Notes: generated by a model from the sequence alone, not told the origin. A stretch of DNA of 64,000 bases from Nitrospirales bacterium (GCA_963422365.1 OY729426.1:640001-704000); one strand, 5' to 3'. Shown: positions 2,684-61,068, counted from the stretch's first letter. Numbers and translations: made by a program.

Positions 2684-3319
2684 GTGAATGCCACTCAATA
2701 CCCCGTCTTCACCGTCGGCCACTCCAACCATTCGCCGGAAGCGTTCATCAAACTCCTCCGGCGGCACGGCGTGGCTGGAGTGGCCGATGTTCGCTCGTTC
2801 CCGTACAGCCGCTCTACTCCCCATTTCAATCATGAGAACTTGAGACGGCTGCTGGACGACGTGGACATTGCCTACACGTTCCTGGGCGGGGAACTGGGTG
2901 GCCGGCCGGCTGACCGTTCCTGCTACGACGCCAACTGGCGAGTTCTGTACGACCGGGTAATGGACACCGACCCGTTCGATGACGGCATCCGTCGTGTCAT
3001 CCGGAGCGCCGACGAGCATCGTGTCGCCCTCCTGTGTACCGAGAAAGAGCCGCTCGAATGCCACCGCACATTGTTGATTGCCAGGGTCCTTACAGAACGC
3101 GGCGTTGCCGTTGAACATATTCTCGCCGACGGCCGTCTGGAAAATCACGACACCGCCACGGAGCGGCTGCTGGACATGTTCAAGTTGCCCCACAACGGCG
3201 ATCTGTTCCGTTCCGGAAGCAACGTCATGGCCGATGCACTGACCCGTCAGGCACAGAAAGTGGCCTACATCGGTGAAAAGCCGCCCGTTTACGGTGACAG
3301 ATGGGGAAACGTATCGTGA
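2684..3319 (+). CDS. DUF488 family protein (long type)
   Basis: FTVGHSNH, DVRSFPYSR, ELGGRP, LLCTEKEPLECHR motifs. Confidence 0.88.
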   Translation: MNATQYPVFTVGHSNHSPEAFIKLLRRHGVAGVADVRSFPYSRSTPHFNHENLRRLLDDVDIAYTFLGGELGGRPADRSCYDANWRVLYDRVMDTDPFDDGIRRVIRSADEHRVALLCTEKEPLECHRTLLIARVLTERGVAVEHILADGRLENHDTATERLLDMFKLPHNGDLFRSGSNVMADALTRQAQKVAYIGEKPPVYGDRWGNVS

Positions 3320-4168: not shown

Positions 4169-7100
4169 ATGGCGAAGCCGACAAAGCACGCCAAGCGGGA
4201 CATCGAGACTTACGCACACACCGGCAAAAAGCGCGTGAACAACCCGCCGGTCGGTCTGGTGACGCCGGATACGGACCTGGACGCGGGAAAGAAGACCTAC
4301 GCCCACGACCCCCATCTTGACCCGCAACTGCAATGGGCCGGCAAGTCGGACCAGACGTCCTTTGACGTGCCGACGGTCTCGCTTCACGTCCACGAACGGA
4401 TCGACCCGCGCACGATCGTCGAAGCCGTGCGAAAGCGTAACGGCCCGTCTGCCGGCCAGGCAGGCGCGGAACCGCAGCTCTCGTTGTTTGCCGCACCCGA
4501 AGAAAACCCACCGATCCGCCAGGCCATCGAGTTCTACAAACACCGACACAACTGGACCAACCGCCTGATCGCCGGTGACAGCCTGCTCGTCATGAACAGC
4601 CTGCTTGAGAAGGAAGGCATGGGTGGGAAAGTGCAGATGGTCTATCTTGACCCGCCTTACGGCATCCGCTATGGCTCAAACTTCCAGCCATTCGTCAACC
4701 GGCGCGAGGTCATCGACGGCAGGGACGAGGACCTGACCGGCGAGCCAGAGCAGATCCGCGCCTTCCGCGACACCTGGGAACTCGGCATCCACTCCTACCT
4801 CGCTTACCTGCGTGACCGCCTGCTGCTGGCGCGGGAACTACTGACCGAAACCGGCAGTGTTTTCGTGCAGATCGGCGACGAGAACGTGCATCGGGTGGGC
4901 ATGGTGATGGACGAGATCTTCGGCGCAGGGAACCGCATGGCAACGATTTCCTACGCCACGACCGGCGGTAGTTCAGCCAACACATTGCCACAGGTCGCCG
5001 ACTATCTGCTCTGGTACGCCAAGGATCGTCAGCAGGTGAAGTATCGACAGCTTTATGAACCGCTGACGCGGGCGGAAATCGTCGAACAGATGAATTGGGA
5101 CGCCATGGTCGAACTTGAAGATGGCGTGTGCCGCGCTCTGACGCGCGAGGAAAGAGTCGATCCGGACAGGTATCTCCCTAAAGGCGCGCGCTTGTATCAG
5201 CGGGCCATGCTCACCTCTCAAGGTGAATCCCAGACGGGAAGGTCGGAACTCTACGAAGTCGGAGGGAGGACATATATCTGTCAGAGGAATCAGCAATGGC
5301 GGGTCGGCAAGGCAGGTCTTGACCGGCTATACGAGATCGGGCGCTTGGATCTCAGCGGGCAGCACAAGAGACTGGCTTGGAAGCATTACGAAGACGAGAT
5401 CCCAGGAAAGCGTTTGAACAACGTATGGGCCGATCTGGCTCGTCCTATGGACAAACGCTATGTCGTCCAGACCGCCCCGAAGACCATCCAGCGCGCCATC
5501 CTGATGACCACCGACCCGGGCGATCTGGTCTTCGACCCGACTTGCGGCTCCGGCACCACGGTGCACGTCGCCGAGCAGTGGGGCCGGCGCTGGATTGCCT
5601 GCGACACCTCGCGCGTGGCCGTCGCCATCACCCGGCAACGGCTGATGACAGCCCACTTCGACTATTACGAACTTGCCCATCCCGATGAAGGCGTCGGTGC
5701 CGGGTTCCGCTGCCGCAGCGTGGCCACTGTCTCGGCGCGCACCCTCGGCTACGACGAGCCGCCCAACAAGACGATCCTCTACGACCAGCCGCACCTCGAC
5801 CGCAAGAAGACCCGCGTCACCGGACCGTTCACCGTCGAGGCCGTGCCCGCACCCGCAGTGAAAGCCCTGGACGAGATTGTTGACCCTCACCCCGACCCTC
5901 TCACGGAGGGAGAGAGAGAAAAAAGGGAACGCTCTCAAGGGCGGGGGATGAATGCGGACGCCGACCTGTCCATTGCCCGCTCCGGCGAAACCCTGCGGCA
6001 GAGCGACTGGCGCGACGAACTGCTGAAAACCGGCATCCGCGGCAAGGCCGGCCAGCGCATCTCCTTCGCCAGGCTAGAGCCAATGCCGGCCACGCGGTGG
6101 CTGCACGCCGAGGGCGAAACCCGACCGGACGATTCAGGGGCGAACGAGGTCCGCGAGCCCGCCACCGCCTACAACCCCGAGCGCGTGGCGGTCTCCTTCG
6201 GGCCGGAGCACGCGCCCCTGGAGCAACGCCAGGTCGCCCGCGCCATCGAAGAGGCGCAGAGCCTTGTCCCGAAGCCGAAGATCATCGTCTTCGCCGCCTT
6301 CCAGTTCGATCCGGAGACGGCCAAGGACATCGACGAGACCCACTGGCCGGGCGTCACGCTGCTCAAGGCGCAGATGAACGCCGACCTGTTGACCGGCGAC
6401 CTCAAGAAGAAACGCGCCAGCAACGAGAGCTTCTGGCTGATCGGCCAGCCGGACGTGGCGGTTTCGAGTTTCGAGTTTGTCGTTTACGGTAAAGGCAAGG
6501 ACAGGATTGCTGAATATGGAACGTTCAAGAAGCTATCGGGACTTGATTGTCTGGAAGAAATCAATCGACTTGATTGGCAAGGTCTATGCCTCTACGCGCT
6601 CCTTTCCCAGGGAAGAGATCTATGGCATTATCTCGCAGATACGCAGGGTTGGGATTTCGATAGCGGCCAATATCGCGGAAGGCCAAGCCAGAAACACGAG
6701 CGGGGAGTTCCGGCAGTTTCTTGGAATAGCCCGGGGATCGTTGGCGGAATTGGAGACGTTGCCGACGATCTCGTAGAATTCGGGATATTCGACCTCGCCG
6801 GATGCCGAAGGGTTATTGAGCGACTGCGAGGAGATCCCCAGGTTGTTGGCAGGCTTGCAGAAATCGCTCAAGCCCTGAACTTCCCCATCACTCCCCACAC
6901 TAACAACTACCGGCTCGAGACTCAAAATCTGCACAGCGTCGCCGTGCACGGCTTCGACTACTACAACACCAAGACCGGCAACGTGGAATCCGGCGGTGCG
7001 GACAGGATCGCCCTGTGGATGCTCGACCCGGACTACGACGGCCGCAGCCTGTTCCCCCGCCAGGTCTTCTTCCCCATGGCCGGTGCGCAGGACGGCTGGG

Positions 7101-7264
7101 CAAGGCTCGCCCGCAACCTCAAGGCGGAGATTGATATGGACCTGATCGAGACGTATCGCGGCGCCGTCTCACTGCCCTTCGAGGCGGGCGAACATAAACG
7201 CGTCGCCGTCAAGATAGTCGACGACCGGGGCATCGAGAGCTTGAAGATCGTGGAGGTGGGATGA
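4169..7264 (+). CDS. Type III-like RM site-specific DNA adenine methyltransferase (Mod) with in-frame insertions
   Basis: YLDPPYGI catalytic motif before DPTCGSGTT SAM-binding motif (beta class); C-terminal AVKIVDDRGIESL; upstream of a Res helicase-nuclease. Confidence 0.9.
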   Translation: MAKPTKHAKRDIETYAHTGKKRVNNPPVGLVTPDTDLDAGKKTYAHDPHLDPQLQWAGKSDQTSFDVPTVSLHVHERIDPRTIVEAVRKRNGPSAGQAGAEPQLSLFAAPEENPPIRQAIEFYKHRHNWTNRLIAGDSLLVMNSLLEKEGMGGKVQMVYLDPPYGIRYGSNFQPFVNRREVIDGRDEDLTGEPEQIRAFRDTWELGIHSYLAYLRDRLLLARELLTETGSVFVQIGDENVHRVGMVMDEIFGAGNRMATISYATTGGSSANTLPQVADYLLWYAKDRQQVKYRQLYEPLTRAEIVEQMNWDAMVELEDGVCRALTREERVDPDRYLPKGARLYQRAMLTSQGESQTGRSELYEVGGRTYICQRNQQWRVGKAGLDRLYEIGRLDLSGQHKRLAWKHYEDEIPGKRLNNVWADLARPMDKRYVVQTAPKTIQRAILMTTDPGDLVFDPTCGSGTTVHVAEQWGRRWIACDTSRVAVAITRQRLMTAHFDYYELAHPDEGVGAGFRCRSVATVSARTLGYDEPPNKTILYDQPHLDRKKTRVTGPFTVEAVPAPAVKALDEIVDPHPDPLTEGEREKRERSQGRGMNADADLSIARSGETLRQSDWRDELLKTGIRGKAGQRISFARLEPMPATRWLHAEGETRPDDSGANEVREPATAYNPERVAVSFGPEHAPLEQRQVARAIEEAQSLVPKPKIIVFAAFQFDPETAKDIDETHWPGVTLLKAQMNADLLTGDLKKKRASNESFWLIGQPDVAVSSFEFVVYGKGKDRIAEYGTFKKLSGLDCLEEINRLDWQGLCLYALLSQGRDLWHYLADTQGWDFDSGQYRGRPSQKHERGVPAVSWNSPGIVGGIGDVADDLVEFGIFDLAGCRRVIERLRGDPQVVGRLAEIAQALNFPITPHTNNYRLETQNLHSVAVHGFDYYNTKTGNVESGGADRIALWMLDPDYDGRSLFPRQVFFPMAGAQDGWARLARNLKAEIDMDLIETYRGAVSLPFEAGEHKRVAVKIVDDRGIESLKIVEVG
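4443..4465. repeat. Short palindromic repeat (GCCYGTCTG-N5-CAGGCAGGC) in frame in mod
   Basis: Imperfect 9-bp inverted repeat resembling intergenic copies at 15583-15612 and 17080-17102; encodes PSAGQAG. Confidence 0.5.
5884..5918. repeat. CCCTCACCCC...CTCTC-N-GGGAGAG palindromic element in frame in mod
   Basis: CCCTCACCCCGACCCTCTCACGGAGGGAGAGAGAG encodes PHPDPLTEGERE; similar copy inside larC. Confidence 0.65.
6460..6929 (+). mobile_element. Four-helix-bundle gene cassette bounded by inverted heptamer repeats, inside mod
   Basis: Left flank GTTTCGAGTTTCGAGTTTGTCGTTT, right flank CAACTACCGGCTCGAGACTCAAAATC (18/26 Watson-Crick plus 4 G-U); sits between Mod segments LIGQPDV and VHGFDYYN. Confidence 0.7.
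6516..6878 (+). pseudogene. Four helix bundle protein (TIGR02436 / 23S rRNA IVS / Avd-like) nested in the +1 frame of mod; internal TAG 6774-6776
   Basis: SYRDLIVWKKS...FPREEIYGIISQIRRVGISIAANIAEG...EFRQFLGIARGSLAELET; after the TAG the frame continues NSGYST...EEIPRLLAGLQKSLKP to TGA (120 codons total). Confidence 0.88.
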
Positions 7265-24400: not shown

Positions 24401-25660
24401 ATGAACGAGGATTATCGGACCAAAGCGTTACTCATCGCGGTTTCCGGAGATCCTATCCCGGTACAGGCCTGCATCAATCGGCTCGTCCCGGAGTTTCTCT
24501 GTTTTGTGGTATCCGACTCCCGGAAAGCCTCTATCGAAGCAGACATTCAACCGGCAATCACCACAATGCCGCAACGATGGGATTGGATTCTCACGGAAGA
24601 GTCTGAAAGTTTTACCGCGGTCCATCACACGTTCACCCAAAGCCTTCCCGACATGTTGAAGACCTGGGGCCTGCAACCCGGAGAACTCGTCGTGGACTTC
24701 AGCAGAGCCACTCCGGCCATCGCCGCAGCGATGGCGCTCGCCAGCCGACCATGGACGTCGCAAGTTGTTTGCTTGACCACACCGGAGAGCGAGCCGGCCC
24801 AGAAGGACATCGTGAAGTTCGAAGGACGGACCTTCGCGTGGCAAGAGGGAAATCCCTGGAATGAAGAAGCCGTGACGGCCCGACAGGAAGCAGCCCTGTT
24901 ATTTAATCAAGGGGCATTTTCCTCGGCAGCCAAACGGTTTCGACGCATTGAATCGTTGGTCGGGGGAAGCCTCAAACCGCTGTATCACGCCCTGGCGAAT
25001 TTGGCCGATGGCTATGCCGCCTGGGAAGGCTTCAAATACCGAGAGGCCTGGGACAAACTCAAAACCGCTCTCAAGGCCTTGGAATTAGCCTCGGTCTGGG
25101 GAGGACCGCCCGGCATGTCTTTATTCCTGGCCGGCGTCAAACAGAACCTGAAGTTTTTGGAAAGCATTGTCATGGACCCCGATGACGTCAAGATCCCCGT
25201 GGCGTATGATTTACTCGCCCATGCGAAACGACGCGGGGAACGAGATCAGCACATCGACTTGGCCCTCCAACTGTTACTTCGAGCGCTAGAAGCCTATTCC
25301 CAGCACCAATTGTGGAACCAGCATGGAATCAAAAGCTGGGACGTGCAGGTTGAACAATTACCGCAAGATTTACAGGAACTCTGTCGGACCTGCTATGCCA
25401 ACGACATGGATGGGAAATTTCATCTTCCGCTACAGGCCCAATTTCGCGCCTTGGCCGGGCTGGGTCATCCCATGGGACAAACCTTCGTGAACGAGTGGGC
25501 AAAACTCAAAACCCTCTGGGATGCAACCGACCACAGCGTTCTGGGCCATGGGGTTCAAACCACGAAACCCGAACGGTTTCATCAGTTCTATGCCGTGGCC
25601 ATCAAACTGACCAACGTCACCGAACCCAACTTGCCGGCCTTCCCGAAGATGACGTTGTAA
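24401..25660 (+). CDS. TIGR02710-like CARF/HEPN protein without adjacent cas genes
   Basis: N-terminal CARF-like strand pattern (LLIAVSGDP...LVVDFS), NPWNE, helical middle, C-terminal HSVLGHG. Confidence 0.6.
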   Translation: MNEDYRTKALLIAVSGDPIPVQACINRLVPEFLCFVVSDSRKASIEADIQPAITTMPQRWDWILTEESESFTAVHHTFTQSLPDMLKTWGLQPGELVVDFSRATPAIAAAMALASRPWTSQVVCLTTPESEPAQKDIVKFEGRTFAWQEGNPWNEEAVTARQEAALLFNQGAFSSAAKRFRRIESLVGGSLKPLYHALANLADGYAAWEGFKYREAWDKLKTALKALELASVWGGPPGMSLFLAGVKQNLKFLESIVMDPDDVKIPVAYDLLAHAKRRGERDQHIDLALQLLLRALEAYSQHQLWNQHGIKSWDVQVEQLPQDLQELCRTCYANDMDGKFHLPLQAQFRALAGLGHPMGQTFVNEWAKLKTLWDATDHSVLGHGVQTTKPERFHQFYAVAIKLTNVTEPNLPAFPKMTL

Positions 25661-25665
25661 CTTCC

Positions 25666-25730
25666 GTGAACGTCACAATCTATTATGAAGAGACCGACCG
25701 GCATGGTGTCTTACGCCAACCATCTCAAAT
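25666..25730 (+). pseudogene. Remnant of a YbgC-like acyl-CoA thioesterase N-terminus
   Basis: VNVTIYYEETD then, after a frameshift, GMVSYANHLK; resembles the YbgC motif RVYYEDTDxxGVVYHANYLK. Confidence 0.45.
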
Positions 25731-25858
25731 CGTCGAAGGATCAGCCACCCTCTCAGTTGCTGACGATGGTGTCGCTGCCGCATCTCATGCGGCAGAAAGG
25801 CAATGAAAATACTTCAGGCAACCTACCTCTGAACAGCGGAGGAACAGAGACGAGTGCG

Positions 25859-26212
25859 TTAAGGCTTTTCCCGAAACAGCCAGGCCAAATACATGCCGGC
25901 GATGGCCAGCGTCACCAACTCCACGGTTTGGAGGATGCGACTCACCACCGCCTCGGGCTCCGGAGGCGACAGAATAAAATGCATGCCCAGGTAAGCAGGG
26001 GGGACGCCAGGCGGCGACTCCCACGGCGGAAACAGGACTGCAAGAATCAACGCGCCCGTCATGACGTACAAGATTCGAAGATTCAGGATTTCCTTGGATC
26101 GCGATTCAGCTTGCGGCTCCTGAACGAACCGCTTTCCGCAACTGTGGCAAAAGCGAGCCTCCGAAGACAATTCATGCCCGCATGCCTGACACGTCTTTTG
26201 ACCATTCATCAC
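25859..26212 (-). CDS. Zinc-ribbon membrane protein
   Basis: CQACG...FCHSCG double CxxC plus two hydrophobic helices. Confidence 0.75.
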   Translation of the reverse strand: MMNGQKTCQACGHELSSEARFCHSCGKRFVQEPQAESRSKEILNLRILYVMTGALILAVLFPPWESPPGVPPAYLGMHFILSPPEPEAVVSRILQTVELVTLAIAGMYLAWLFREKP

Positions 26213-26497
26213 GTCAGATTATAATCAAGCTGAGAGAAATTACCAGTGGGGAACTCTGAGTCACCAAAATCTGAGACACAGACGGAGTTGTCTGGCACTG
26301 TGGTGGCATAAGGCACGTGTGACTCCCATCATGAGTTGGAGGCGCGTCTGAATTCAGGAACGCCTTGAAGGAAAACCAACGCAGGATGTGGTCGGCGCCT
26401 ACCAGGAAACGGTTTCAAAAGAAATGCGGGCAAGGTAAGATTGCGATACGCTTCGCGGGAAGCGATCCGGCAAATATCCAAATATGGAATTGGACTG

Positions 26498-27343
26498 ATG
26501 AACCAAGTAGCCGAACCCAGAGCAAGCTACGGTGGACCGTGGACCAGAGAAAAGCTAGAAATACTGAAAAAGTATCTGGATGCCTACACGACCGCACTAA
26601 AAAAGACGCCGTTCAAGCTGATGTACATCGATGCCTTCGCCGGCACGGGTCATTTGGATCTCGATTATATGGATACCAAGGATTTCATGCGTGGCTCAGC
26701 AATAAGGGCTGTCAGCATTGACAACAGGCCGTTCGATAAACTGATTTTTGTTGAAAAAAAACAAGAGCGATGTGATGAATTGGCAAACCTAAGAAAAGAG
26801 CACCCCGGCAGAAATATTCAGATTGAGAATTCGGATGCAAACGAGTTTCTGAGAAGTCTTCAACAAAATTGGAATCAATGGCGCGGCGTCCTTTTTCTCG
26901 ACCCGTTCGCCACGGAAGTCGAATGGTCTACCATCAAAACGATAGCGGGTTTCAATGCGTTGGACACTTGGGTTCTTTTCCCTGTATCTGCAATCGTACG
27001 GATCTTGCCAACATCACGACAACCTGACGATATTTCACCCAAATGGGCCAAGTGTCTTACTCGGATTTTCGGAGATGAGAGTTGGCGCAACCTCTACCAA
27101 GAAAACCCCCAGGGAAACTTGTATGGCGATGTCGAATATCAGAGAAAGCCAGGCGTCGATGGACTCATCGGCATCTACAAGAAAAACCTGAAAAACCTTT
27201 TTGGCACAAGGTGGCTTGAGCAATCTCGATCTCTAAAGAACTCCAATAATTCCCCATTGTTCGAGTTTATGTTCTGCGTGGGAAGCCCGAAGGGAATCGA
27301 TCCCGCCACCAGAATCGCAAACCACATCCTGAAGCACCTGTAG
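26498..27343 (+). CDS. tcmP: Three-Cys-motif partner protein (TcmP family, methyltransferase-like fold)
   Basis: [36 protein letters not shown]; directly upstream of DUF5131. Confidence 0.85.
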
Positions 27344-27345
27344 CC

Positions 27346-28065
27346 ATGTCCACGCCGTCGCGCATCGAATGGACCGAGACCACATGGAACCCGGTCACGG
27401 GCTGCACGAAAATCAGCGACGGCTGCAAGCATTGCTACGCCGAGCGAATGGCAACACGGCTCCACGCCATGGGCGTCACGAAATACCGGAACGGGTTCGA
27501 CCTCACCGTTCACGAGCCGGCACTAGACGCACCGCTCCGGTGGAAAAAACCTCGGCTCGTGTTCGTGAACTCGATGAGCGACCTGTTCCACGACTCCGTC
27601 CCTACCGGCTTCATCCAGTCGGTGTTCCGCGTCATGAATCAGGCATCGCCGCACACGTTTCAGGTGCTGACGAAACGCCCTGCTCGCGTCATGGACCTCG
27701 ATCACGAACTGAACTGGACGCCGAATATCTGGCTCGGCGTGAGCATCGAATCCGAAGCGTGGCTCAACCGCGTGGCGAAACTGATACACGCCGGCGCCCA
27801 CGTGAAATTCCTGTCTCTCGAACCGTTGCTGGGGCCGTTGCCCGGCCTGGATTTGGCAGGAATCGATTGGGTGATCGTCGGCGGAGAATCAGGGCCCGGT
27901 GCCCGGCCCATGAAGGCGGAGTGGGTGCGGGACATCCGCGACCAGTGCCTGCGACGCGGCGTCCCGTTTTTCTTTAAGCAGTGGGGCGGCGTGCGCAAGC
28001 ACCGGACCGGTCGCGTGCTCGATCACACCACGTGGGACCAAATGCCACGTTTCACAACAATCTGA
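27346..28065 (+). CDS. DUF5131 / phage Gp37-Gp68 family three-Cys (radical-SAM-like) protein
   Basis: [64 protein letters not shown]. Confidence 0.92.
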
Positions 28066-28205: not shown

Positions 28206-30970
28206 ATGGCCCCTGTGAATCAAACCCCGGAACAAAAAGCCCGCGACAACATTGATAGGATGTTGGTTGATGCGGGTTGGGTCGTCCAAGACAAAAAGGG
28301 CATCGACTTCAATGCCGGGCCAGGAGTGGCCGTCAGAGAATATCAGACAGATAGTGGGCCGGCGGATTATGTGCTGTTTGTGGATCGTCAACCGGCAGGA
28401 ATTGTTGAGGCCAAGAAAGAAGAAGAAGGGCACTGCCTGACCACAGCGGAAACACAGTCCGATGACTACGCCAAAGCGAAATTGAAATGGATTGCCGATA
28501 GCAAGCCACTTCCCTTCATCTATGAAAGTACGGACGTCCTGACGCGGTTTCGAGACGAACGTGCCCCGAAACCACGATCCCGGCCGGTCTTTACTTTTCA
28601 CCGGCCCGAAACGTTCAAGGCATGGATATCACAGCCTGAAACTCTGTGTTCCCGCTTACTGGATCTTCCCGTTCTCAATACCGAAGGATCGCGGGACTGC
28701 CAGATCAGGGCCATCAACAATCTGGAGCAATCATTTCAAGAGAATCACCCGCGCGCCCTGATCCAGATGGCCACCGGATCAGGGAAGACCTTTACGGCCA
28801 TCACGTTCATCCACCGATTGCTCAAATTCGCCGATGCGAAACGAGTGTTGTGTCTGGTGGATACTAAAAACCTAGGCGAGCAGGCCGAACAGGAGTTCGT
28901 GGCCTACGTGCCCAATGATGACAATCGCACATTCACCGAACTGTATACCGTGCAGCGCCTGAAATCCGGTTATATCGCTTCAGATATCCAGGTTTGTATC
29001 AGCACCATTCAGCGGCTTTACTCTATTTTGAAAGGGGAACCGTTAGACGAAGCCGCTAAACTGGAAAACCCCGCCGAACGGCTTCAACCTCAAAGCCCCG
29101 TGCCCGTGAGTTATAACGGGAAAACTCCCATTGAGTTCTTTGCTTTCGTCGTCATTGATGAATGTCATCGGTCGATCTATAACCTCTGGAGGCAGGTATT
29201 GGAGTATTACGACGCGTTTCTTATTGGCTTAACCGCAACCCCGGACAAGCGCACGTTTGGGTTCTTCAATGAAAACGTCGTCAGCGAATACGGCCATAAA
29301 GAGGCCGTGGCCGACGGCGTGAACGTGGGATACGACGTGTACAACATCGAAACAGAAATGACCCAAAAAGGCGCGAAGATTACAGCTAAGGAATATGTAG
29401 ACAAGCGGGACTGGCTGACCCGAAAAAAAACGTTGGACACAGCTAGATGAAGAGGTCGAGTCTGCTCCCAGGGATTTAGACAGAGACATCGTCAATCCCA
29501 GCCAGATCCGAAATATCATTCGGACGTTCCGCGACAAACTTCCTGAAATGTTTCCAGGACGGAAGGAGATCCCTAAAACCTTGATTTTCGCCAAGACCAA
29601 TAGCCACGCCGACGATATGATCCAGATCGTTCGGGAGGAATTCGGGGAAGGCAATGAATTCTGCAAAAAGGTGACGTATCAGATCGAAGAAGACCCAACA
29701 TCCGTTTTGGCGCAATTTCGGAACGATTTCCATCCCCGTATTGCGGTGACCGTAGACATGATTGCGACGGGAACCGAAGTCAAACCACTGGAATGTCTGC
29801 TCTTCATGCGTGACGTGAAAAGCCGCAACTACTTCGACCAAATGAAGGGACGGGGCACTCGTACACTGGAGTACGACGACCTGAAAAAAGTGACGCCCTC
29901 AACGCACAGCGCCAAGACGCACTTTGTGATTGTGGATGCCGTCGGCGTGACGAAATCCCTGAAAACGGATAGCCGACCACTGGAGAAAAAACCGACCGTT
30001 CCGCTGAAAGACCTTCTTTCTGTCGTCATGATGTGGACACGGGATAAAGAGACCATTTCTTCCCTCGCGAACCGCCTGGCCCGGCTTTCCAAACAACTGA
30101 GTGACGACGAACACAAACGGATTACGGAAAAGACCGAGGGCAAGACCATCAATCAAGTTGTTCATGACTTGCTCGATGCCATGGATCCGGATACACAGAA
30201 GAAAAAGGCCCGTGAGGTGAATACCCTTGCTCCCAACCAGGCTCCTTCAGAAGGACAGATCGAAACGGCAAAAGGAGAACTGGTGAAAGAGGCAACAGGC
30301 GTGTTTACCGGTGCGTTGAATACGTTGCTTGAGAATATCCGCCGAAGCCACGAACAGATTATTGATACGGTGAACATAGACACGGTGGAATTTGCCGGAT
30401 GGGATACACGGGCCACGGAGAAAGCCCAGGTACTCATACAGGATTTCACGTCTTACCTCGAGACTCACAAGGATGAGATCACGGCGCTACGCATCTTCTA
30501 TAACCAGCCCTATCGCCGACGAGAATTGACGTATCAAATGATCAAGGACATTCTGGAACAGCTGAAGCGGGAGACCGAACCTCGCACCGCTACGGATCTG
30601 GCAGGCTTATAAACAACTGGACGACTATAAAGGCCAAGAGCCGGTGAGTGAGCTAACGGCACTCGTGGCGCTGATCCGACGCGCCTGCGGCATTGACGAA
30701 ACCCTTTCACCATATTCGGAAACCATTCTCCGGAACTTTCAGCACTGGATCATGAAACGCCACAGTGGCGGAGGCACGAAATTCAATGAAGAACAAATGC
30801 ACTGGTTACGCATGATCCGCGACCATATCAGCAGTTCGTTCCACCTGGATCGTGAGGATCTTGACTATGCCCCATTCGACGCCCAGGGTGGCTTAGGTCG
30901 CATGGCGCAGTTATTCGGTGATGAGATGGATCGGGTAATTGACGAAATGAATGAGGCGTTGGCGGCGTGA
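28206..30970 (+). pseudogene. hsdR: Type I restriction subunit R (EcoKI/EcoEI-like), two frameshifts
   Basis: TPEQKAR, ADYVL, MATGSGKT, IDECHRS, GLTATP, QMKGRGTR; frameshifts at the A8 run 29423-29430 and near 30573. Confidence 0.88.
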
Positions 30971-31783
30971 AGGCAGGAAGGAGTAAGGAAAAAGGGAGAA
31001 GGAAAAAGGATGAAGTCATGGATCTTCGGACTCGGACGAAGGAGTTTGCACTGCAGATCATTCGCCTTTACTCAGGTCTTCCCAAGCGGACCGAGGCTCA
31101 AGTCATAGGCAGGCAAATTATTCGTTCTGGAACGTCTGTGGGAGCCAATTACAGGGAGGCGTATCGCGCGCGGAGCAAAGCGGAGTTCATCGCAAAGGCT
31201 GGCGATTGTTTGAAGGAGATTGAAGAAACCGGATATTGGCTTGAACTGCTTGTCGACTCAGGAATCGTTTCCGAGGAGCAACTTGAAAGCCTGAGAAATG
31301 AATGCGGTGAATTGACTGCGATATTCGTCACTTCAATTCGGAATGCGAAGAGCAACAATGAACGTGGCGCGTGAAGTGATACCAATCGGAGAAGCGCTCG
31401 CCCCGAGAAATGAGAGGATCGCACCTGCCGACTATCCTGAGTTGCCTTATATTGGTCTTGACAACATTGAAGCTCATTCCATGCGTTTACTCGGTTCAAA
31501 ACCTGCTGCAAGCATGAAAAGTTCCGCCAAACGTTTCTATCCCGGTGATGTGCTTTACTCACGGCTGAACCCCTATCTGAACAAAGTCTGGCCGTCGGAC
31601 CGCAACGGCATTTGCTCATCCGAGTTCATCGTGATGCCCGGCAATCATCTCGTGGATCCCAGCTTTCTCGCATTCAGGCTCAACGCCATGGATTTCGTTT
31701 CATTCGCAACCAGCTTGAATGCAGGCGACAGACCGCGTGTAGACGTTGCTCAGATTTCTACCTTTTGCCTTCCTCCTTTTTCC
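30967..31783 (+). mobile_element. Four-helix-bundle cassette bounded by inverted heptamer arrays, enclosing an HsdS TRD
   Basis: Left array of NNNAAGG units at 30967-31016; right array ATTTCTA CCTTTTG CCTTCCT CCTTTTT CC at 31754-31783 (24/30 complementary to 30987-31016). Confidence 0.6.
31018..31374 (+). CDS. Four helix bundle protein (TIGR02436 family), intact
   Basis: DLRTRTKEFALQIIRLY...VIGRQIIRSGTSVGANYREA...SKAEFIAK...LKEIEETGYWLELL...ECGELTAIF. Confidence 0.92.
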   Translation: MDLRTRTKEFALQIIRLYSGLPKRTEAQVIGRQIIRSGTSVGANYREAYRARSKAEFIAKAGDCLKEIEETGYWLELLVDSGIVSEEQLESLRNECGELTAIFVTSIRNAKSNNERGA

Positions 31784-32015
31784 AGTGTGTTCACAAGAAG
31801 AACAGAAAAAAATAGTCGAGAAAATCGAAGCCCGCCTCTCCGTTGCCGAAAAACTGGAACAAGATATTAAGGACGGCCTGAAACAAGCTGAAGCCCTCCG
31901 TCAATCCATCCTAAAAAAAGCCTTTTCCGGACAACTGGTCGCTCAAGACGCCAATGATGAGCCTGCCAGTGTTTTGCTGGAGCGGATCAAGACGGAGAAG
32001 GCTCAGCTCAAATAG
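31358..32015 (+). pseudogene. hsdS: Type I specificity subunit, single TRD, frameshifted near 31781
   Basis: YIGLDNIE, FYPGDVLYSRLNPYLNK, GICSSEF, DRPRV, then in the +1 frame PVCSQEEQKKIV...LRQSILKKAFSGQLV...EPASVLLERIK. Confidence 0.85.
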
Positions 32016-32044
32016 AAAGCCCGGAAAGAGAAGACCGTCGCCGG

Positions 32045-33518
<1,474 letters not shown>

Positions 33519-33519
<1 letters not shown>

Positions 33520-33593: not shown

Positions 33594-33641
33594 CGCCAAT
33601 TGAGACAGCAAACCGCTTACAGCATCGCATCTGAGACCGCG

Positions 33642-33691
33642 TTGCGCTGTGTATTAGCGCTATACTATATTGAGTGGCACATTTGTGCCAC
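33642..33691 (+). promoter_or_regulatory. Putative sigma70 promoter and palindromic operator of the TIGR04255 operon
   Basis: TTGCGC-N18-TATATT followed by perfect inverted repeat GTGGCACA-TT-TGTGCCAC (33674-33691). Confidence 0.4.
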
Positions 33692-33713
33692 ATATTCAGC
33701 TACGTTGAAGAAC

Positions 33714-34517
33714 ATGACCGTAAAATTCAAGAATCCTCCCGTCAACGAACTGATCATCTCGACGTATTTCAATCCGCCGATACATGGATTACGAAACGAA
33801 CATATTGGTCTTTTCTGGCATTCTATTAGGGACAAATTCCCGACCGTTTCCCAACAACTTCCCCTTCCTCCGGACGTTGGGGTGAACATGGATGCCCCGA
33901 TGGGGCAAGAGATTTTTCCGATGCCTAGATACTGGATGATTGCTTCAGATGATAGAAACCTTATCCAAATACAAAAGCATGCTTTTATGTTGAACTGGCG
34001 TCGCCGTGATGCTGAGTACCCGCACTATGAAAAGATAAAGCCGATTTTTGATAAATATTATTCGAAATTCCAAGCTTTTATATCGTCAGAAACCAATACG
34101 GACAATCTCCATATAGATGTGTGTGCATTGACCTACATCAATAAAATAGAAGCATGTGAATATTGGTCAGGTCCTGAAGACATCAAAACAATCATTCCGT
34201 CATTTTCAATTCCGACTATTGGCTTATCTCCGACAGAGCAACGTTATAATTGTAGCTTTAGCTATGTAATTGATAACGACCTTCAATTACGCGTCTCCGT
34301 GCATACGGCACAATCTGACCGAAATTCTGAGATTCCGATGCTTATCCTTGAAATTCAGGCATCTGGACGTATTGAGTCAGCAAACCGTTCAGAGAACAAA
34401 ACTCTTGCCGATGCATGGTTTGATCATGGTCACCAGGCAATTATCGATTGCTTCGTCAAGATGACAAACCCCGAGATACAGAATCAAAATTGGATGCCTA
34501 CGGAGCATGAGACATGA
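33714..34517 (+). CDS. TIGR04255 family protein
   Basis: FKNPPVNELI, PRYWMIASDDRNLIQIQ, NWRR...YPHYE, LTYINKI. Confidence 0.8.
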   Translation: MTVKFKNPPVNELIISTYFNPPIHGLRNEHIGLFWHSIRDKFPTVSQQLPLPPDVGVNMDAPMGQEIFPMPRYWMIASDDRNLIQIQKHAFMLNWRRRDAEYPHYEKIKPIFDKYYSKFQAFISSETNTDNLHIDVCALTYINKIEACEYWSGPEDIKTIIPSFSIPTIGLSPTEQRYNCSFSYVIDNDLQLRVSVHTAQSDRNSEIPMLILEIQASGRIESANRSENKTLADAWFDHGHQAIIDCFVKMTNPEIQNQNWMPTEHET

Positions 34518-34981
34518 GCACAGGCCTATCAACCGACTACAACCCCCGCATTTCTGCCTACACGCCTATGAACATAGACGAGAGTGAGGCTTTTCTTCGT
34601 GAAAAAATGGCCGCAACCCAACAGGCAACAGCAGCCTATCTGCAACGAATTGCGGAACTCAAAAAAGATGCGGTGGCCGACGGCATTGCCATGAATCCCT
34701 CTTCTGAGCGCGAATTCCGGACATTTTTAGGGACTCGCGGCTTTTTCCGAAAAGGGGCACTCTTTCTTCTGGACAATGGAAACCTTCGTGCTATCTGGAA
34801 GAACGAACAGGGTGATCACATTGGTCTCCAGTTCCTCGGCAATGGAGCCATCCAATACGTCATGTTCACGCACAGGAACCCTCGGGCAAAAAATGTTTCG
34901 AGGGTAGCCGGACGCGACACCCTTGATGGCGTCCGCCGCCAGATTCTGGCTCTTGACCTCGCCGATCTGCTCTCGTCATGA
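34514..34981 (+). CDS. Hypothetical protein, translationally coupled (ATGA overlaps on both sides)
   Basis: ATGA overlaps at 34514 and 34978; LFLLDNGNLRAIW...IGLQFLG. Confidence 0.75.
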   Translation: MSTGLSTDYNPRISAYTPMNIDESEAFLREKMAATQQATAAYLQRIAELKKDAVADGIAMNPSSEREFRTFLGTRGFFRKGALFLLDNGNLRAIWKNEQGDHIGLQFLGNGAIQYVMFTHRNPRAKNVSRVAGRDTLDGVRRQILALDLADLLSS

Positions 34982-35433
34982 AGGACGATCCGCTTCCAGA
35001 TGCTGACCACGTTGTGCGCTACGTTCGATCCGGTTTGATAGATGGTGAAGAAGTTGCCGGAGGGGCATTTCTTAGAAGAAATGGAGAACGTGCGTGTTCG
35101 ATAAACTGGCTGGACTACTTCCGAGATCAGTCAAAAGAACGGCAGGTGCGTGAAGTTCGTCGGCTCATTCGCCTCGAAATCCGTCCCAATGGGCGTTTAG
35201 CAGAACTTCATGTGGGTCGAACCAAGCAACATGTAGCCGATCATCTTACACCTCTTGACTTTGTTGAAGATCCGCTTGCTGCCGACTTAGGCAACGGGTA
35301 CCGCGAGAACCCCTCTCATGCTCTTATCAAGGGACTTCCAGACCCCGAGCAAAATTCTGAATTTTCAGAAATGATCGGAGATATGATCGCCGAATGCGTA
35401 ATCATACCTCTCCATAAAGCTATTGAAGGGTGA
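34978..35433 (+). CDS. Hypothetical protein, possible ADP-ribosyltransferase/RES-like fold
   Basis: HVVRY...AFLRR..E..CSINW...NPSHALI pattern (R...SxN...H). Confidence 0.6.
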   Translation: MKDDPLPDADHVVRYVRSGLIDGEEVAGGAFLRRNGERACSINWLDYFRDQSKERQVREVRRLIRLEIRPNGRLAELHVGRTKQHVADHLTPLDFVEDPLAADLGNGYRENPSHALIKGLPDPEQNSEFSEMIGDMIAECVIIPLHKAIEG

Positions 35434-60089: not shown

Positions 60090-61068
60090 TTAGGCCCACT
60101 TACAGGAGGGTCGGCTCCCATCCGGCTCCAGCACCTCATACAGCAAAGCGTTGAGTAACCATCCCCGCGTTTCCTCACCTGTAGCCAGGCTAGTTTCCAG
60201 ACGGTCGCACAGGCCCATTAGTTCATCGACCTTGTCGACGAAGCGGTCTTGTTCAGCGAGGGGTGGGAGAGGGACAGGAGTATGAAGCAATGTCTGCTGA
60301 TTGATCTTGGGCATAGTCTTTTGAGCGCCAGTCGCATTGATCGAGAAGTAGGTTCGTGCATCAGGAGAAACAACTGCCAGGTAAACATACGGCAGGGAGA
60401 GCCCATTGAGTAAACGGACCTTAGTAATCAGGTCTGGATACAGGAAGACTCCGCTTGCGCCGGAAAAATAAGCCGCAATCCCGACATACTCTCTCGTGTT
60501 ACCTCTCCGAAAAAGCAGAGCACCATCATGCAGCCAGTATTCTGAATCCGCTGGAACGTTAGCTTCGACATGCTTGAAATATGAAGCGTCGAACGTACCA
60601 CTGGTGGTTGCTGTAAGCATAATGGCTTTTGGAGCATCGGTTGAGTTTGTAGCTTTTGGCGAAATACCGTTCTGTGGTCCAAACGAAATGAGCTTTCCGA
60701 GTGGGACCCAACGCCACGAACTTGGAATCAAAGCCAAGTTATCCTGAATCTCCAAGTTGCAAGTGACGGCGGAATGTTTGAGTTTTTTCCCGACGATTAA
60801 GCGCTTTTGCTGGATACTGAATTCTTCTAGCAGGTCATCGACACCACTCTCACTTGATTCCTGCTCGACCAGCTTCCGACGTACCGCAGGGGTAAGGATG
60901 GTCTGACGTAACGCCTTGATCGGGGCGGGGTGGGTGGTGAGTGGTACAAGGTTTTTGAAGGCAAAAGCCGCGTGGTTCTGAAATACCGTCGGGTCGGGAT
61001 CGGGCGCGTGAAGGCGGGCGAGGCTTGTCACCGTCAGCCGGTCGTGCGTCGTTTCCCGCTCTGTCCGT
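60090..61068 (-). pseudogene. hsdS: C-terminal half of a type I HsdS
   Basis: IKALRQTIL, IPSSWRWVPLG, PLPPLAEQDRFVDKVDELMGLCDRLE; 5' half missing. Confidence 0.8.

Follow-up and report, generated by a model that had tools for sequence, protein, structure and literature searches.

The gene cluster considered here, in which a gene for a four-helix-bundle (4HB) protein lies between two complementary arrays of heptamers in a Type I restriction-modification (R-M) operon of a Nitrospirales bacterium, most resembles the intervening sequences (IVSs) of 23S rRNA that carry an open reading frame (ORF), as in Coxiella burnetii and Leptospira. The Coxiella burnetii IVS has three to four heptameric repeats (GACAGAT x3, strain-variable in number) upstream of an S23p ORF and a 28-bp terminal stem, and RNase III cleaves it at the first repeat (PMC4990558). 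The locus studied here belongs to a 64,000-nt stretch, the whole of which is called the window below (G000:C1:640001-704000, part of a 2.5-Mb single-contig genome that is 98.6% complete). It shares with those IVSs a PF05635/TIGR02436 protein, terminal inverted repeats and heptamers before the ORF, and its inverted repeat (25/31 positions, 7-nt period) would, in predicted folds, pair as an IVS-type stem enclosing an ORF. Unlike the IVSs, which occupy helix 25 or 45 of 23S rRNA, the cassette stands between hsdR and hsdS/hsdM. Its loop holds a second cargo, the first target-recognition domain (TRD1) of hsdS, its 3' arm is translated as part of HsdS, and its arms are homopurine and homopyrimidine. 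What the case adds is a coding 3' arm, an enclosed TRD1, a freeze of synonymous sites, a 76-locus negative control and a cross-phylum replacement with mapped junctions.

Type I systems swap TRDs by two known routes, homologous exchange in conserved regions and invertase-driven shuffling of spare hsdS copies. In EcoDXXI and in EcoR124 derivatives, half-size or truncated HsdS proteins were reportedly formed by recombination between two conserved regions. The window hsdS is similar in that TRD1 is joined directly to the C-terminal conserved region, but the reading frame is lost at the join, a 5-nt microhomology at the edge of the arm, so that no half-size HsdS would be made without frameshifting. 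The TRD shuffling and epigenetic invertons of hsdS (SpnD39III and others; PMC7672463, PMC7394358) are alike in that repeats at TRD borders allow exchange and a change of specificity, but invertons depend on an additional hsdS copy in inverted orientation, usually together with an invertase; the window has neither. Here, moreover, the repeats are heptamer arrays common to the 4HB cassette, one of them lies outside hsdS, and exchange is observed between genomes, not within a cell.

A further likeness is to Avd of the diversity-generating retroelements (PMC10053308), a small PF05635 four-helix protein that lies beside variable target-recognition sequence. Unlike those elements, the present genome has no reverse transcriptase (PF00078, 0 matches in the whole 98.6%-complete genome), and no template-repeat/variable-repeat (TR/VR) pair was seen. 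A literature search, which mostly did not cover subscription journals, turned up no publication connecting heptamer repeats to hsdS and none on a 4HB cassette outside rRNA.

A heptamer-armed 4HB cassette in a Type I operon

The operon is of the EcoEI type and has the order hsdR - 4HB - hsdS - hsdM. Its features are given below; CR1 is the central conserved region of HsdS, and L, G and X numbers denote loci, genomes and public sequencing runs, respectively.

28206..30970, + strand: hsdR pseudogene (EcoEI-type), with frameshifts near 29425 and near 30580; resident, orthologous to congeners
30968..31017, + strand: 5' arm, a purine heptamer array of 7 units nnnAAGG; its first TGA is the hsdR stop codon
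30971..31783, + strand: imported block as a whole (arm - 4HB - TRD1 - arm), in place of the congener TRD1-CR1-TRD2 (~1.28-1.31 kb)
31018..31374, + strand: intact 4HB gene, 118 aa, PF05635/TIGR02436, S23p/Avd-like, by profile matches
31358..31752, + strand: hsdS 5' part, imported TRD1 of 'type A' (...LNAGDRPRVD..), by sequence and by homology to L003/L005 copy 2
31753..31783, + strand: 3' arm, a pyrimidine heptamer array within hsdS, complementary to 30987-31017; codes ISTFCLPPFS
31779..31783, + strand: right junction, a 5-nt overlap (TTTCC) of imported block and resident hsdS; equals the hsdS frameshift, off by one base
31782..32015, + strand: resident hsdS 3' end (TRD2 end and C-terminal conserved region), in the +1 frame, translation PVCSQEEQKKIVEKIEARLSVAEKLEQ...
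32045..33519, + strand: hsdM pseudogene, disrupted by the in-frame stop TAA at 32114-32116 and, near 32842, by a frameshift

A first-pass annotation of this DNA had described a purine array at the hsdR stop, an intact 4HB gene overlapping the hsdS start and, about 380 nt beyond that gene at the end of the TRD, a complementary array matching at 24 of 30 positions. All three are present, with the match now counted as 25 of 31. The purine array reads TGAAGG-CAGGAAGG-AGTAAGG-AAAAAGG-GAGAAGG-AAAAAGG-ATGAAGT, and the Shine-Dalgarno (SD)-like sequence that serves the 4HB gene lies within it. From GTG 30967, which overlaps the hsdR stop, the array is moreover open in frame with that gene, with VKAGRSKEKGRRKKDEV as the in-frame extension. 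The pyrimidine array reads ATTTCTA CCTTTTG CCTTCCT CCTTTTT CC. The peptide ISTFCLPPFS and a frame break at the edge of this arm had likewise been noticed, and the break proves to be the right junction: the hsdS frame changes inside 31779-31783, after which the +1 frame reads PVCSQEEQKKIVEKIEARLSV...

The hsdS gene starts at 31358 (alternatively 31343), overlapping the 4HB stop, and its 5' part encodes a single TRD that runs up to the pyrimidine array. A Pfam scan of this TRD1 alone matched no family; its identity as a TRD rests on its position, on homology to full-length HsdS and on the match of 7vru to residues 19-170 of L003. The full-length homologues are HsdS proteins (Pfam Methylase_S; PDB 1yf2, 7vru), and relatives that are intact, such as L003, have a complete TRD1 - CR1 - TRD2 - C-terminal conserved region. 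The window gene does not have this Type I architecture: its TRD1 runs, out of frame, straight into the end of TRD2 and the C-terminal region, and CR1 and the rest of TRD2 are missing. It is a pseudogene of the HsdS family. The resident 3' end matches residues 428-520 of the G014 HsdS at 74%, and its DNA is 79-87% identical to that of congeners.

The flanking genes are broken as well. The Pfam domains of hsdR (ResIII, HSDR_N, Helicase_C and EcoEI_R_C) are spread over three ORF pieces in three frames, with the frame changes placed by tblastn using the L005 HsdR as query. In hsdM, which is ~86% identical to congeners, N6_Mtase is split across two ORFs and HsdM_N is weak. With hsdR, hsdS and hsdM all disrupted, the whole R-M system of the window is dead. 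Contigs from public runs X1 and X2 (one study; 30400-32169) and X5 (another study; 31232-31988) are letter-for-letter identical to the window where they cover it, and all include the right junction, so the frame break is not a one-off assembly error, although the window itself may have been assembled from one of the three.

Non-randomness of the arrays

The pattern AAGGN3AAGGN3AAGG (one mismatch or fewer) matches five times in the 64-kb window, always within the two arrays (four times on the + strand at 30978-31016, once on the - strand at 31761-31778), compared with a chance expectation of 0.32; none of 100 shuffles reached five. The arrays also form the top inverted repeat of the region (30987-31017 with 31753-31783; 31 nt, 81% complementary, 735 nt between). 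In the 5' array, Tandem Repeats Finder reported a period of 7 (3.7 copies, 78% matches) together with one of 14 at 30980-31015; it made no call for the 3' arm. An array detector based on 7-nt self-match in C-poor or G-poor 28-mers found four arrays in the whole window, two of which are the two arms.

About seven other sites in the genome carry AAGG-type heptamer arrays, all of them solitary (G000:C1 789311-789422, 886326-886377, 1081825-1081870, 1663373-1663404, 1740166-1740197, 1672131-1672155 and 1769136-1769160); two pairs among them fall in duplicated segments. None has a partner arm within 1 kb or a 4HB gene, and they are uninformative on mechanism. In run X5, a 546-nt contig with a depth of 492 (genome ~20) matches only 33 nt of the 3' arm (31762-31794), with 3 differences, so arm-like arrays are abundant elsewhere in the X5 sample.

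The 4HB gene and its relatives

The 4HB product has no internal stops and scores 80.7 bits against PF05635 (cut-off 33.8, E 1.1e-22) and 101.6 bits against TIGR02436 (cut-off 24). Its sequence matches PDB 2rld (5 chains) over residues 4-113 (E 3.5e-25). It is 97% identical in amino acids to its counterparts in L003 and L004, and 95% identical in nucleotides to that in L003.

To place this gene in its general class we took the best 80 of 275 genome loci that encode relatives of the protein. A purine array lies at, or up to 150 nt upstream of, the 4HB gene in 71 of these, and a pyrimidine array at, or up to 150 nt downstream of, the gene in 48; four loci have no array of any kind. The 80 loci hold 240 arrays in 393 kb, and the adjoining genes are diverse (R-M, toxin-antitoxin, housekeeping). 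Unlike cassettes of this class that close directly after the 4HB gene, the one studied here has its closing arm ~380 nt further on, inside hsdS, where it is coding and encloses TRD1.

The genome's other TIGR02436 gene also lies in the window (6549-6872, 111 bits, one in-frame TAG), in a cassette at 6477-6878 with GTTTCGA repeats upstream. This cassette sits inside a 1031-aa host ORF (4169-7264), the flanks of which resemble one DNA-methylase-type protein (..FWLIGQPDV / ..VHGFDYYNTKTGNVESGG..). The host ORF is open in another frame straight through the insert of roughly 400 nt, which was unexpected.

Recurrence of the hsdS-embedded form

An hsdS gene follows the 4HB gene in 14 of the 80 genome loci (L003, L004, L005 copy 2, L012, L013, L014, L015, L016, L021, L025, L028, L038, L046 and L060). 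In every one of them the closing arm is absent behind the 4HB gene and a pyrimidine arm stands 379-485 nt downstream, at the end of TRD1 (nine found by the array detector, five by a motif search). Pfam confirmed 11 of the 14 as HsdS with an ORF that reads through the arm, and the carriers come from roughly eight phyla. The embedded arm occurs in two classes, ..TTCTGCCTTCCTCCTTTTTCC (ISSFCLPPFS) and ..TTCGCCTTTTTTCTTCCTTCTTCC (ISSFAFFLPSS), both of which keep their complementarity to purine arms. TRD1 itself belongs either to family 'A' (ending ..LNAGDRPRVDFDQ) or to family 'B' (ending ..VQGALYPAVRPKD), which are not related to each other. Most embedded loci have a second, inner purine array between the 4HB stop and the hsdS start, coding the N-terminus MK(E/A)EG.., so that TRD1 itself is bracketed by purine and pyrimidine arms. 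The inner arm is missing from the window, L003, L004 and L012, where the 4HB gene overlaps hsdS.

In L013 (about 3240-3290) the arm-bearing hsdS is frameshifted by one extra T (7 T after GAA; relatives are in frame), so the homopolymer of the arm can also break hsdS.

As a control, metagenome contigs were scanned with the CR1 that follows the arm, a search blind to codon choice, and the best 80 of 496 loci were kept. Three of these have the tract (L142, L153 and L172). L142 and L172 have a 4HB gene ~420 nt upstream together with purine arrays, whereas in L153, which has no 4HB gene, only a purine arm separates the hsdR stop from the hsdS start. Among the 79 control hsdS genes that could be read (one locus was incomplete), the other 76 had no tract, no 4HB gene by tblastn and no array by the detector; they read (I/L)P(L/I)PP(L)xE in mixed codons. 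Arrays of any kind were found in 3 of the 80 control loci, in 243 kb. In L139 and L158 (RVGFDQIGKFGILVPPP) and in L128 (AVRPGDIESFEFLLPP) the TRD1 ends are homologous to families A and B and the arm is absent; the HsdS protein therefore does not need the arm. The TRD2 ends of arm-bearing genes, which have the equivalent PLPPL motif, were not flagged by the array detector, and the orthologous hsdS of congeners G002, G005, G014 and G022 has neither arrays nor a 4HB gene.

Thus, the tract goes with 4HB genes or purine arms and is not a general property of HsdS. The finding named at first pass as one that would refute the idea, HsdS proteins encoding the same tract with no 4HB gene nearby, did not refute it in these controls. 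The unit of purine arm, 4HB gene, TRD1 and pyrimidine arm, proposed at first pass as bounded by its repeats, is real and recurrent, with 14 cases among the 80 genome loci and three among the 80 metagenome loci (L153 without the 4HB gene).

Synonymous sites of the 3' arm are frozen

Codon choice in the arm is nearly invariant across 17 loci: Ile is ATT in 15/15, one Ser is TCT in 16/17 and another TCC in 13/15, and Phe is TTC in 16/17, while Leu is CTT, Pro is CCT (at two positions) and a further Phe is TTT in 11/11 each. Codon choice at the 15 positions directly upstream is freer, with 2-4 synonymous codons in use at each and the commonest of them making up 42-89%. In pairwise comparisons, arms of the same class are 84-97% identical, compared to 61-80% for the 4HB gene, 53-83% for CR1 and 59-69% for homologous TRD1; in two cross-class pairs arm identity is 69-70%. 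The window arm is 84-87% identical to those of L012 and L015, whose genes are 61-66% identical.

By these comparisons the 3' arm is the best-conserved DNA of the operon, with synonymous sites frozen where neighbouring codons drift. A functionless tract would not behave so over such divergence, and the arms are probably selected as nucleic acid and not as protein code.

The cassette was imported as a block

We searched 24 congeners, of which four of the same genus (G002, G005, G014 and G022) carry the orthologous operon, with a weak match in G010. Congener homology to the window ends at 30966-30973 and resumes at 31779 or 31800; between these points congeners have a full-length hsdS (TRD1-CR1-TRD2) of 1.28-1.31 kb. 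The last 1.2 kb of the window hsdR is 82-94% identical to the four congeners, compared to 45-76% to L003-L005. The block at 30971-31783, by contrast, is 92-95% identical to metagenome-assembled genomes of other phyla. Against L003, which is from another phylum, identity is 95% in the 4HB gene, 92% in TRD1 and 97% in the 3' arm; against L004 the values are 91%, 88% and 94%, and TRD1 is 89% identical to that of L005 copy 2. The 17 nt directly after the arm are 29% identical between window and L003. These identities indicate that arm, 4HB gene, TRD1 and arm came into the window lineage as a block, overwriting a resident TRD1-CR1-TRD2 of the congener type.

Each junction coincides with the outer edge of an arm. 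The left one is at the hsdR stop, where the last hsdR codons (GGCGGCGTGA) have the spelling of congeners and not that of the donors (GCCGCATGA). On the right, homology to the donors (L003, L004 and L005) ends at 31783 (..CCTCCTTTTTCC), and the congeners G014 and G022 match again from 31779, where G014 reads GAATTTCCTGTGTGTTC, leaving the shared TTTCC. Its codon phases are 2-3-1-2-3 in the donor frame and 1-2-3-1-2 in the resident frame. The join is therefore one base out of frame, and the hsdS frameshift is the scar that it left. Slippage in a homopolymer is not the cause, as the T5 run of the window has the same length as in intact genes. For annotation, this means that the frameshift is explained by the junction, not by a homopolymer error.

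TRD1 swaps and other rearrangements at the arms

Two pairs of loci show unlike TRD1 sequences between like arms, as the first-pass annotation had suggested that a comparison of related operons might. Between L038 and L046 the 4HB gene is 80% identical, TRD1 45% (unrelated), the arm 97% and CR1 83%; between L014 and L016 the corresponding values are 79%, 51%, 91% and 68%. Unrelated TRD1 families thus stand between arms in otherwise similar operons, and TRD1 has been replaced between arms at least twice.

In L005 (2380-4420) the module is present twice in tandem, with a RelE/HigB-like and HTH gene pair of opposite orientation in between. Copy 1 consists of an hsdR tail, purine arm, 4HB gene, purine array, a 20-nt remnant of a TRD1 end and pyrimidine arm, directly after which the toxin-antitoxin pair is inserted. 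Copy 2 opens with 110 nt repeated from the hsdR tail, followed by a purine arm, the first 4HB codons fused to the hsdS start, TRD1, pyrimidine arm and CR1. Homologous integration of a circle that carried the module would, we infer, produce such a pattern.

The closest 4HB relatives (L006-L011, from Latescibacterota and Gemmatimonadota; 83-87% amino-acid identity) lie amid many arrays and toxin-antitoxin-like genes. Their arms keep a 30-nt remnant of the hsdR tail (..IDELxEVL*) and a 45-nt remnant of the TRD1 end (NAGD....ISSF), and in L006, L007, L009 and L011 arms with TRD1-end remnants stand outside hsdS. The module has therefore left its hsdR/hsdS setting in these loci. The clusters look like an array of arm-bracketed modules.

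In the same clusters (for example L007 2400-5310 and L011 2400-4100) up to 7-12 arrays are interleaved with MNT, DUF433, AbrB/PIN-like and Fic-like C-terminal domain genes. Elsewhere, solo purine-pyrimidine hairpins lie in frame in the central spacer of intact hsdS genes, at L014 2090-2170 and L060 3465-3525, and are translated as ..SEVRIKKDEAKSPKSRASTSSFLTPTSSF.. and ..ELRRKNAEGNPLLPSSF.., respectively.

How the arms may act

On balance, and with modest confidence, we favour the view that the element is a heptamer-armed 4HB cassette with its 3' arm inside hsdS, and that the arms serve both as pairing nucleic acid and as boundaries of exchange. By analogy, the cassette is of a kind resembling the ORF-bearing IVSs of 23S rRNA. 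The module is found in one widely dispersed lineage of EcoEI-type Type I operons, and the site of its 3' arm is the border of TRD1 and the conserved region, where it doubles as the codons I-S-(S/T)-F-x-L-P-P-F-S. In the operon transcript the arms would pair with each other, as the terminal repeats of the rRNA IVSs do, and the resulting stem could be a substrate of RNase III or could keep the SD-rich 5' arm masked. As DNA, the arms may act by placing 30-50 nt of near-identical homopurine/homopyrimidine sequence on either side of TRD1 in operons that are otherwise 60-70% identical. Homopurine/homopyrimidine tracts are recombinogenic, and exchange or rearrangement might tend to start and end at the arms through short-homology or microhomology joining, for which an invertase would be unnecessary. 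Likeness to IVS termini and predicted folds suggest that the arms are kept as pairing nucleic acid; their near-identity across diverged operons would make them places where exchange starts and stops, a role to which three junctions and two TRD1 swaps point.

A nucleotide-frozen repeat, common to a selfish-looking 4HB cassette, thus marks the TRD1 border across about eight phyla, and the same repeat is where a cross-phylum replacement began and ended. If the arms promote exchange, they would provide a third route, next to homologous exchange and invertases, for spreading or destroying restriction specificity, and the first concrete, testable activity for the very large and unexplained S23p/TIGR02436 family and its heptamers.

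Several observations weigh against this view. The window copy itself is non-functional, with a single-TRD, broken hsdS in a dead operon, so that specificity was destroyed there and not swapped. The repeated unit of L005 and L006-L011 takes in 30-110 nt of hsdR tail outside the left arm, and 'arm-bounded' fails in these loci. All embedded cases fit one hsdS lineage and may descend from a single ancestral capture. The left junction is resolved only to ~20 nt, and on the right an imported TRD1-arm-CR1 may have been trimmed afterwards, by a deletion running from the arm edge to where TRD2 ends, in which case this junction would not belong to the import. Although the two arms pair with each other in predicted minimum free energy (MFE) and centroid folds, both for the window and for L003, these fragments were cut at the arms, which favours pairing of the ends; the folding energy of the whole fragment does not differ significantly from shuffles (z = +1.18 for the window, -1.65 for L003). 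Any purine arm pairs with any pyrimidine arm at ~-32 kcal/mol, and cognate arms did not clearly outdo non-cognate ones (outer arm, p = 0.06 ungapped, p = 0.69 with RNAduplex; inner arm, p = 0.017), so that locus-specific co-variation of the arms is weak. Among arm positions that are not Watson-Crick, G.U outnumbers A.C (70 vs 38), the direction expected of sense-strand RNA, but the count comes from related loci and may reflect base composition. Finally, no inverted or excised form was found in contigs of four runs (X1, X2, X5 and X6), which hide rare variants.

Apparent compensatory changes seen by eye in L172 and L021 are anecdotes and were not counted as co-variation. Candidate joints in X6 were rejected, being in short contigs of other organisms, with sides of 21-39 nt and likeness under 95.

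The first-pass annotation had gone further, proposing the unit as a possible vehicle for swapping restriction specificity without an invertase. This is supported in part. The recurrent unit, its arrival as a block, the junctions at arm edges and the unrelated TRD1 families between like arms speak in its favour. Against arms that act as a vehicle are the absence of inverted or excised forms from contigs of the four runs, the single orientation in all 18 loci, the weak co-variation, the hsdR tail in the unit, the fit of all cases to one hsdS lineage and the destroyed specificity of the window.

A rather unlikely alternative, which we nevertheless take seriously, is that the arms matter only in the transcript, either as an IVS-like RNase III stem or in translational control of 4HB and hsdS, and that the boundaries coincide with the arms merely because TRDs always swap at domain borders. 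TRD shuffling at conserved-region borders is, after all, normal for Type I systems. The pairing of the arms in predicted folds and the excess of G.U over A.C would fit such a role, as would a purine arm with SD-like GGAG/AAGGA opposite a pyrimidine arm with CCUCC, and there is the precedent of the IVS, in which RNase III cuts at the heptamers. An RNA role alone does not account for three independent rearrangement junctions (in the window, in L005 copy 1 and in the L006-L011 remnants) that fall precisely on the outer boundary of the 3' arm, nor for a window junction at a 5-nt microhomology in the arm and not in the long conserved helix expected of homologous exchange. Were it correct, the arms would be an IVS-like processing stem built into protein-coding sequence.

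The opposite extension, which we think unlikely, regards the arms as the functional termini of a system of mobile modules, in which the 4HB gene is merely a signature cargo and the TRD rides between the arms and is moved across phyla. A TRD, or elsewhere toxin-antitoxin or Fic genes, would be carried between purine and pyrimidine arms, through a paired arm-to-arm RNA or single-stranded DNA intermediate or by arm-directed recombination. Arms might be tolerated in coding sequence because what they code are tolerated linkers (the MKEEGRRK N-termini and the ISSFxLPPFS border of the TRD), and the solo hairpins of L014 and L060, which are read through, would reflect the same tolerance. If this were true, the present Type I lineage would have a portable 'specificity cassette'.

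We consider it quite improbable that the hsdS arm is a functionless, frozen accident, left when a 4HB cassette recombined once with the pyrimidine-rich LPP stretch of one hsdS and the chimera spread as an ordinary operon, the window being an ordinary horizontal replacement that then decayed. The embedded cases do share homologous hsdR tails, 4HB genes and conserved regions, native HsdS ends already have a similar peptide (QIGKFGILVPPP in L139) that is sometimes pyrimidine-rich (TTTCCTCTTCCTTCTTTCACC in G002), and arm co-variation is weak. Such an accident would not leave arms 84-97% identical where genes are 45-83% identical, with synonymous sites frozen, nor two arm classes each complementary to purine arms.

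That the arrays form a phase-variable switch is very improbable, be it an inverton, gain and loss of heptamers as in simple sequence repeats (SSRs), or +1 frameshifting at T5 that restores a half-size HsdS. Inverted repeats do flank part of hsdS; 7 is not a multiple of 3 and the number of units varies among relatives; L013 has a one-T frameshift in the arm, and UUU-U permits re-pairing after a +1 slip. But no recombinase family was found by Pfam scan among 16 ORFs of 24.4-35.4 kb, and no other hsdS copy in the window resembles this one in its DNA. All 18 loci share one orientation, none being inverted, and contigs of X1, X2 and X5 have one form only. The units are imperfect (78% matches), whereas an hsdS driven by SSRs needs a perfect tandem repeat in its ORF, the T5 run has the canonical length of intact genes, and hsdR and hsdM are dead regardless. 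Mere coincidence between an SD-rich leader and LPP codons that look complementary is hardly credible: purine-rich leaders and LPP motifs are both common and the genome has ~7 other solitary purine arrays, but the controls already refute it, with 0/100 shuffles at the observed count, 76/76 hsdS genes without a 4HB gene lacking the tract, frozen synonymous sites and a layout that recurs in 17 other loci.

Neighbouring genes and a second HsdS-like gene

The operon lies within a stretch that resembles a defence island (24401-28065 and 33600-35433). Upstream are a Csm6-type HEPN protein (24401-25660), a zinc-ribbon ORF (25859-26212, - strand), a 300-aa ORF (26441-27343) and DUF5131 (27346-28065), and three ORFs follow hsdM; no family was assigned to the 300-aa ORF or to these three. 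The only other Methylase_S match in the window (60192-60725, - strand, 29 bits) shares no DNA with the locus studied here, and it lies in a 330-aa open frame that ends ..PVPLPPLAEQDRFV.., an ordinary TRD end.

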